Shown here piece by piece: positions 470 through 733 of a stretch of DNA of 50,849 nt. Under the pieces are notes generated by a model, which worked only from the letters and a program-made list of their open reading frames with translations, did not search any database and had not been told where the DNA came from. The position numbers were made by a program, and so were the translations under genes. Position 1 is the stretch's first letter. Every line of letters starts with the position of its first letter. Origin of the DNA: Escherichia phage BabyEgg; sequence record PP925846.1. One strand, 5' to 3'.

Positions 470-733
470 ATGAATAAGGCATTAATGGCGGTTTTTATGG
501 CAACAGCATTCCTGACCGGATGCAATGGTGATGGTGCTTACGTCGATGCACAAATGGCTAACCCTGCCGATACTTACAACGTCAGAAAACTATTTACAGT
601 TGATGGTTGCGATGTGTACAGGTTCAGCGATAGCCGATACGTGTACTTTACCAACTGCCAGGGTAGCGCAAACTGGTCAACTAACGAAGGCAAGTCGGTT
701 AGCCACTACCAGAACACAACAAACGTGAAATAG
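470..733 (+). CDS. putative small lipoprotein (87 aa)
   Basis: N-terminus MNKALMAVFMATAFLTGC = signal peptide plus lipobox L-T-G-C; four further Cys; start moved to the ATG at 470 that overlaps the stop of gene 1. Confidence 0.55.
   Translation: MNKALMAVFMATAFLTGCNGDGAYVDAQMANPADTYNVRKLFTVDGCDVYRFSDSRYVYFTNCQGSANWSTNEGKSVSHYQNTTNVK

Follow-up and report, generated by a model that had tools for sequence, protein, structure and literature searches.

At positions 470–733, Escherichia phage BabyEgg (PP925846.1) carries a genuine accessory gene whose product is a small lipoprotein of the DUF4884 family. The lipoprotein encoded at the receptor-binding locus tracks the terminal receptor of the phage; the DUF4884 lipoprotein does not. 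In the window, by which we mean the whole stretch of 50,849 nucleotides that was analysed, its product departs from the receptor-blocking lipoproteins Cor, Llp and Rtp45 in every respect open to testing, namely the match to models, the location of the gene and co-variation with the receptor. We tentatively favour, with a confidence somewhat below even, an explanation in which an early DUF4884 lipoprotein acts, independently of the receptor, on a conserved component of the envelope, its target, localisation and phenotype being ones that we infer.

The gene and its product

The gene and the parts of its product are as follows.

457–462, plus strand: Shine-Dalgarno sequence GAGGAG, 7 nt 5' of the ATG at 470, as read from the sequence
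470–733, plus strand: DUF4884 prolipoprotein gene, ATG start, 87 aa, N-terminus MNKALMAVFMATAFLTGC
470–520, plus strand: signal peptide, aa 1–17
521–523, plus strand: codon of Cys18, the predicted site of lipid modification, lipobox L15-T16-G17-C18
aa 19–37: tether
581–664, plus strand: conserved beta core, aa 38–65, with Cys47 at 608–610 and Cys63 at 656–658
C-terminal tail: variable

The ATG starts 1 nt beyond the TGA stop of the upstream gene (466–468). An alternative TTG start at 449, which would give a product of 94 aa, was rejected; the ATG at 470 is preceded by a ribosome-binding site and yields an n-region of normal form, and the equivalent Met is where homologues begin. The signal peptide and lipobox read MNK / ALMAVFMATAF / LTGC, with Lys3 in the n-region, a hydrophobic stretch of 12 residues and Asn at position +2. 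All elements expected of a lipoprotein signal are found, i.e. a charged n-region, an h-region and a lipobox of the form [LVI][ASTVI][GAS]C within ~35 residues. In E. coli, a residue other than Asp at +2 predicts Lol-dependent sorting to the outer membrane. Since the +2 residue of the 470–733 product is Asn and not Asp, the protein is predicted to be sorted there.

The first-pass annotation had described the second gene as encoding an 87-aa lipoprotein with an LTGC lipobox, and the open reading frame, the ribosome-binding site and the canonical signal all bear this out. It had also counted four additional Cys residues, which is an error: the product has three in total (18, 47 and 63), so that only Cys47 and Cys63 remain besides the lipid-modified one. 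Four are commoner elsewhere in the family, as described below.

An AlphaFold2 model built from a 64-sequence alignment has the form of a small beta-meander, with strands at residues 39–44, 47–53, 57–63, 66–68, 71–73 and 77–79; confidence in the model is moderate (mean pLDDT 67, 79–84 in the core). Fold searches with the 470–733 product yielded no significant match and no structural relative, and a profile search of PDB sequences with two DUF4884 profiles and with gene 1 gave nothing meaningful.

The DUF4884 family

The 470–733 product belongs to an already catalogued family, and its close relatives already carry the label 'DUF4884'. It matches the Pfam model (PF16225) with 31.1 bits against a gathering cut-off of 30 (E=2e-7) and phrog_6360 with 4.6e-9, the latter model being matched by all 64 aligned relatives; a DUF4884 family profile scores the window reading frame at 101 bits. 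Thirteen residues are invariant in the 64 diverse members (L41, F42, D45, G46, C47, Y50, R51, F52, D54, Y59, C63, G65 and G74), and all of them are present in the window protein. In the literature DUF4884 was found in two papers, as an annotation label only, and we found no experiment on any member.

The extent of the family depended on how it was searched for. A word-indexed search with the single protein returned only 3 close relatives, and an alignment query together with exhaustive HMMER was needed to recover the whole family. The alignment-based search retrieved 580 proteins. Exhaustive HMMER over 1.84 billion representatives of 50%-identity clusters recovered 1,878 clusters with E≤1e-3, of which 902 reached E≤1e-10; most of these stand-alone proteins have 76–120 aa. 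Longer members (137–289 aa) were considered as domain fusions and rejected as such; because they keep an internal signal peptide and have no second Pfam domain, we put their length down to fusions made in gene calling.

Virulent as well as temperate phages of Enterobacterales and Pseudomonas carry members of the family, which is phage-borne and mobile. By tblastn the gene turned up in 113 phage records, mostly of Tempevirinae and Braunvirinae coliphages, and also in Serratia myophages (MTx, Hera), Pantoea phages and Pseudomonas phages (Jeremy, and Dolphis via the protein database). Chromosomal copies were found in the Pseudomonas putida group and in Klebsiella and other Enterobacterales, and were prophage-borne wherever their context was inspected. 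The phage collection holds ~640 records at ≥60% identity by large-terminase matches, compared with 113 carrying DUF4884, and no homologue was found in T1 (NC_005833), although the gene order of its left arm matches that of the window. We therefore class the gene as accessory. The first two genes of T1 (ST77 and ST76) encode proteins different from those of window genes 1 and 2.

The lipobox is retained in 238 of the 247 members that carry the core motif, and only 10 of those 238 have Asp at +2. The tether, measured from the lipid-modified Cys to the first core Cys, is 23–30 residues long across the family, and it is followed by a core with the signature LFTVDGC(T/D)VYRF.D..R.VY(F/Y)TNC.G...GK. 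Mature parts contain four Cys, including a CGKNC pair, in 126 of the 238 members and two, as in the window protein, in 97. The window protein shares the core (LFTVDGC.VYRF.D...Y(F/Y)TNC.G) with the rest of the family but is missing the CGKNC pair found in about half of it; judged by this comparison, it has lost the C-terminal pair.

Position in the first operon and expected time of expression

The gene is the second behind a consensus promoter that lies across the window junction.

50797–50824, plus strand: sigma-70 promoter TTGACA-16-TATAAT, 12/12 consensus, just 5' of gene 1 across the window junction
1–468, plus strand: gene 1, DUF7174 protein of 155 aa without signal peptide (Pfam PF23796, 4.3e-50)

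This promoter, the strongest of host type in the genome, is the sole 12/12 sigma-70 site on either strand of the window, where shuffled sequences lead one to expect 0.06. The next best site, at 32288 (plus strand), matches at 11/12 positions. Between the promoter and the ATG at position 1 lies AGGAGGA. The coupling of genes 1 and 2 is tight, and a scan of the window found no terminator-like site between the start of the operon and 2526.

Comparison with relatives places the corresponding block at the left end of the genome. The homologous block of phage Rtp comprises rtp1–rtp3 (546–1383) at its physical left end, and the first operon of the window corresponds in its arrangement to the left end of T1, which falls within the 2.8-kb terminal redundancy of that phage. 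The prophage homologue lies within an operon that runs from a cI-like repressor gene towards int. Taken together, the uniqueness of the promoter, the coupling of the genes and the left-end position in Rtp and T1 argue strongly for early transcription by the host RNA polymerase. The DUF4884 gene is thus very probably expressed early from the host-type promoter, a timing that rests on promoter strength and gene position, and the promoter likely marks the first operon as an immediate-early unit. Early expression had been proposed before and is well supported by these features. A Drexlerviridae transcriptome that could time the gene was not found in the literature.

A variable cassette without a fixed partner

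Genes 1 and 2 and their promoter region form a variable cassette.

50233–50849: 5' part of the cassette, which continues to 733 and totals ~1.35 kb (promoter region and genes 1 and 2)

Its flanks are ~90% identical in dozens of relatives, in which similarity stops at ~50232 and resumes at 728 or 812, and the only relatives that have the cassette as well are MatMar, WaterSpirit, BEBK14 and Jahat_MG145. In Drexlerviridae, for example in BEK26 and Rtp, the DUF7174 gene precedes the DUF4884 gene. It is absent upstream of DUF4884 in Serratia phage MTx and Pseudomonas phage Jeremy, and the records show no Pfam family ahead of the prophage copy. As DUF7174 occurs in 306 phage records and DUF4884 in 113, the two are not obligately paired.

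Neither did the surroundings of 80 IMG/VR loci reveal a conserved partner: the 601 neighbouring reading frames fall into 448 clusters, and no neighbour family is present in more than 9 loci. In 46 of the 80 loci the upstream gene has the same orientation as the DUF4884 gene and overlaps it or directly adjoins it. With no widely shared neighbour, the DUF4884 protein appears to work alone or with host components only.

On several of the IMG/VR contigs (L032, L039–L043, L053, L069, L072 and L086) the DUF4884 gene is surrounded, within 4 reading frames on either side and mostly upstream, by arrays of 2–4 paralogous small genes encoding proteins of the type MNERIKELAEQA...FAELIVRECA...HFGVEE. Such flanking arrays indicate that in larger phages the gene sits in hyperplastic accessory regions.

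The receptor-locus lipoprotein and the DUF4884 lipoprotein compared

The window, a T1-like coliphage genome, falls among the Tempevirinae of the Drexlerviridae, near the Warwickvirus phages MatMar, BEBK14, WaterSpirit and Jahat_MG145. It is collinear with T1 through the left-end genes, pnk, terminase, the structural genes, the J-like tip, the receptor-binding module, Cor, replication and the lysis cassette. Further features relevant to the comparison are listed below.

28851–29783, plus strand: receptor-binding module downstream of the J-like tail tip gene (phrog_557 and phrog_425), with the architecture of T1 ST32/ST31
29807–30040, minus strand: Cor superinfection-exclusion lipoprotein (NCBIfam NF047972, 70.9 bits with a cut-off of 31, 6.3e-20; phrog_1119, 5.1e-30)
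42924–43160: holin, in the lysis cassette before the endolysin
43160–43648: endolysin, in the lysis cassette before the Rz-like spanin
43648–44034, plus strand: Rz-like spanin, a third lipoprotein with lipobox LLSGC (phrog_1804, 1e-45), collinear with T1 ST13–ST11

The matches to both Cor models corroborate the earlier identification of a Cor-like lipoprotein at 29807–30040. The 470–733 product had been presented as a second lipoprotein besides Cor; it is indeed distinct from Cor, though not the only other one, as the Rz-like spanin also has a lipobox. When the 470–733 product was compared with the Cor models (NF047972 and phrog_1119) and with spanin models, neither set gave a match, and an alignment of the DUF4884 and Cor profiles by hhalign joined only residues 1–39, i.e. 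the signal peptide and lipobox. The weak match to EexN (E=0.053) was likewise limited to the signal peptide.

Receptors of the BASEL phages have been determined experimentally, and the exclusion-lipoprotein loci of small siphophages have been matched to them (Maffei et al. 2021, S5 table for the receptors). The exclusion lipoproteins known so far are encoded next to receptor-binding genes, and a different receptor goes with a different lipoprotein: for instance, Cor belongs to FhuA, Rtp45 to LptD (it pairs with LptDE, and the structure of the complex has been solved; PMC12685063) and the mEpimmI Lpp types, which pair with OmpA or LamB (PMC11893012). The DUF4884 gene, in contrast, is part of the first operon, a long way from the receptor-binding genes.

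Sequence comparison among the BASEL phages, Rtp and the window showed no co-variation of DUF4884 sequence type with the terminal receptor. The DUF4884 proteins of JakobBernoulli, which uses FhuA, and KarlJaspers, which uses BtuB, are 98% identical (dS 0.21, dN 0.010, dN/dS ~0.05), and that of PeterMerian (FhuA) is 91% identical to either. The receptor-locus lipoproteins behave otherwise. With the window Cor as reference, that of JakobBernoulli (bas07_0026) is 88% identical and that of KarlJaspers 33%, in the signal peptide only; in the latter phage Cor is replaced by another lipoprotein. Conversely, the window and JakobBernoulli, both of the Cor/FhuA type, have 88% identical Cor proteins but DUF4884 proteins that share 45% identity. 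The two receptor-binding proteins of the window are 53% and 42% identical to their counterparts in JakobBernoulli. The LptD phages JeanPiccard and Rtp have a third DUF4884 type, 85% identical between the two, which follows their subfamily. Rtp carries both Rtp45 and DUF4884 (rtp3), so the two lipoproteins are not alternatives. With its sequence type uncoupled from the receptor, DUF4884 is unlikely to be a second receptor blocker in the style of Cor.

The BtuB-type lipoprotein of KarlJaspers (bas06_0026; L012:2546–2815, minus strand) has the same signal peptide as the window Cor (MKKLIAVLIAAVALTGC, 17 of 17 residues), and the mature parts of the two are unrelated. The shared signal peptide suggests that recombination in module swaps takes place at or within the sequence encoding it.

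Possible functions of the DUF4884 lipoprotein

In the reading that we prefer, the DUF4884 gene would be transcribed by the unmodified host RNA polymerase on DNA entry, and its product would leave the cytoplasm through Sec, receive its lipid at Cys18 and be delivered by the Lol pathway to the outer membrane, where it would sit in the inner leaflet. A periplasmic beta domain of ~45 residues, stabilised by a Cys47–Cys63 disulfide, would be held there on a tether of fixed length. Its conserved core would bind an envelope component conserved across Enterobacterales and Pseudomonas, and not FhuA, BtuB, LptD or another phage-specific receptor. The outcome would be an early, receptor-independent effect: incoming phages might be excluded after adsorption, or the envelope of the infected cell might be conditioned or protected. 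A lipoprotein that is probably made first, kept under strong purifying selection and shared across different receptors and hosts points to a conserved envelope target worth hitting early. The conserved core could also reflect the folding constraint of a tiny disulfide domain and not a shared target, in which case the variable N- and C-terminal segments would carry specificity. The product may act at another stage of infection than Cor.

More broadly, DUF4884 proteins might constitute a widespread, hitherto unrecognised class of early lipoproteins that act on a conserved component of the periplasm or outer membrane and protect the infected cell independently of the receptor, for example by keeping unrelated superinfecting phages from crossing the envelope or delivering their DNA, as a generic layer on top of the receptor-specific Cor. 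This we consider rather unlikely. Small envelope proteins that block DNA entry without masking a receptor are found in TrbK and EexN of conjugative plasmids and in Imm and Sp of T4, which serve here as analogies only; to our knowledge, T4 Imm and Sp are not lipoproteins.

The strongest competing explanation, unlikely as we judge it though worth serious consideration, is that the protein takes over or conditions the host envelope by acting on peptidoglycan turnover, outer-membrane biogenesis, stress sensing (e.g. Rcs via RcsF), Tol-Pal or lysis timing. Early expression, conservation of the core across phages with differing hosts and receptors, and residence in early accessory regions of virulent and temperate phages alike would all fit such a factor, as would the fixed length of the tether, which suggests a defined distance from the outer membrane. 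On the other hand, the protein has no similarity to known inhibitors or regulators, no conserved neighbour indicates a pathway, and the gene is dispensable in many relatives, T1 included.

A factor countering an envelope-located defence of the host or of a prophage, such as a membrane-anchored abortive-infection or exclusion system, would be expected to have a patchy accessory distribution, to be exchanged as a cassette between conserved flanks and to be expressed first in infection, as the DUF4884 gene is or seems to be. However, few known defences have periplasmic targets, the gene is not linked to known anti-defence genes and bears no anti-defence annotation, and PADLOC defence models gave no match to genes 1–3. 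We regard this role as improbable.

Less probable still is the role suggested by the first-pass annotation, in which the protein, as a second blocker of the Llp/Cor type, would bind the periplasmic face of FhuA or of a second protein receptor and prevent adsorption. Like Cor of T1, phi80 and N15, the DUF4884 protein is small (87 aa, as against 77 in Cor), has an LTGC lipobox and two Cys in its mature part, and is encoded in the same genome. Like Llp of T5 and Rtp45 of Rtp, which are small periplasm-facing lipoproteins of lytic siphophages anchored in the outer membrane (PMC12685063), it is predicted to be anchored there. The size, the lipobox, the putative single disulfide pair and the probable early expression resemble those of Llp, Cor and Rtp45 (PMC12685063). 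Yet Llp binds FhuA and Rtp45 binds LptDE, in each case the phage's own receptor and in a complex of solved structure, and Cor is encoded alongside the receptor-binding genes, in the opposite orientation, and goes with the FhuA-type module, unlike the DUF4884 gene in the first operon. The proposal that the DUF4884 protein blocks the phage's own outer-membrane receptor is disfavoured by the near-identity of DUF4884 proteins across FhuA and BtuB phages, by their divergence between two Cor/FhuA phages, by the distance of the gene from the receptor-binding locus and by the lack of likeness to Cor in the mature domain. Moreover, the gene is carried by LptD phages (Rtp, JeanPiccard), by Serratia and Pseudomonas phages and by prophages, and the present phage already has a matched Cor.

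That the reading frame is spurious or a decaying, functionless remnant is scarcely credible: one of the two Cys pairs that about half of the family possesses has gone, but the gene is kept in 113 phage records under purifying selection (dN/dS 0.05–0.15 in pairs of close Tempevirinae relatives), with signal peptide, lipobox, ribosome-binding site and invariant core residues intact.

Exclusion lipoproteins are among the few phage accessory proteins for which structures and mechanisms are available, and all known ones are matched to a receptor. Beside these there exists a large phage lipoprotein family that appears to be expressed early, and for this window the comparison corrects the annotation and speaks against a specific hypothesis. 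Identification of the target of the DUF4884 lipoprotein would give a function to a family of ~1,900 sequence clusters and could reveal a new mechanism of exclusion or take-over, or a vulnerable point in the Gram-negative envelope.

Additional observations on the window and its relatives

Gene 3 (828–2024, plus strand) encodes a protein of 398 aa that is matched by phrog_7116 in three stretches. It contains three internal repeats of the form (K/Y)(F/Y)PITF(E/Y)..G...(V/I).FTSRDNG.Y..G, followed by a distinct C-terminal part.

A reading frame of 59 aa at 5660–5839 (plus strand), MKIAIITFIALIAGCYLAYNY, also matched a loose lipobox pattern. Because its hydrophobic stretch runs on after the Cys, the product looks like a small membrane protein and not a lipoprotein.

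Records MG065638–MG065685, deposited as 'Campylobacter phage' (A143, A139, E6 and others) and labelled Campylobacter jejuni, carry DUF4884 and are ~88% identical to the window at the nucleotide level. They look like T1-like coliphage sequences, which makes the host label questionable.
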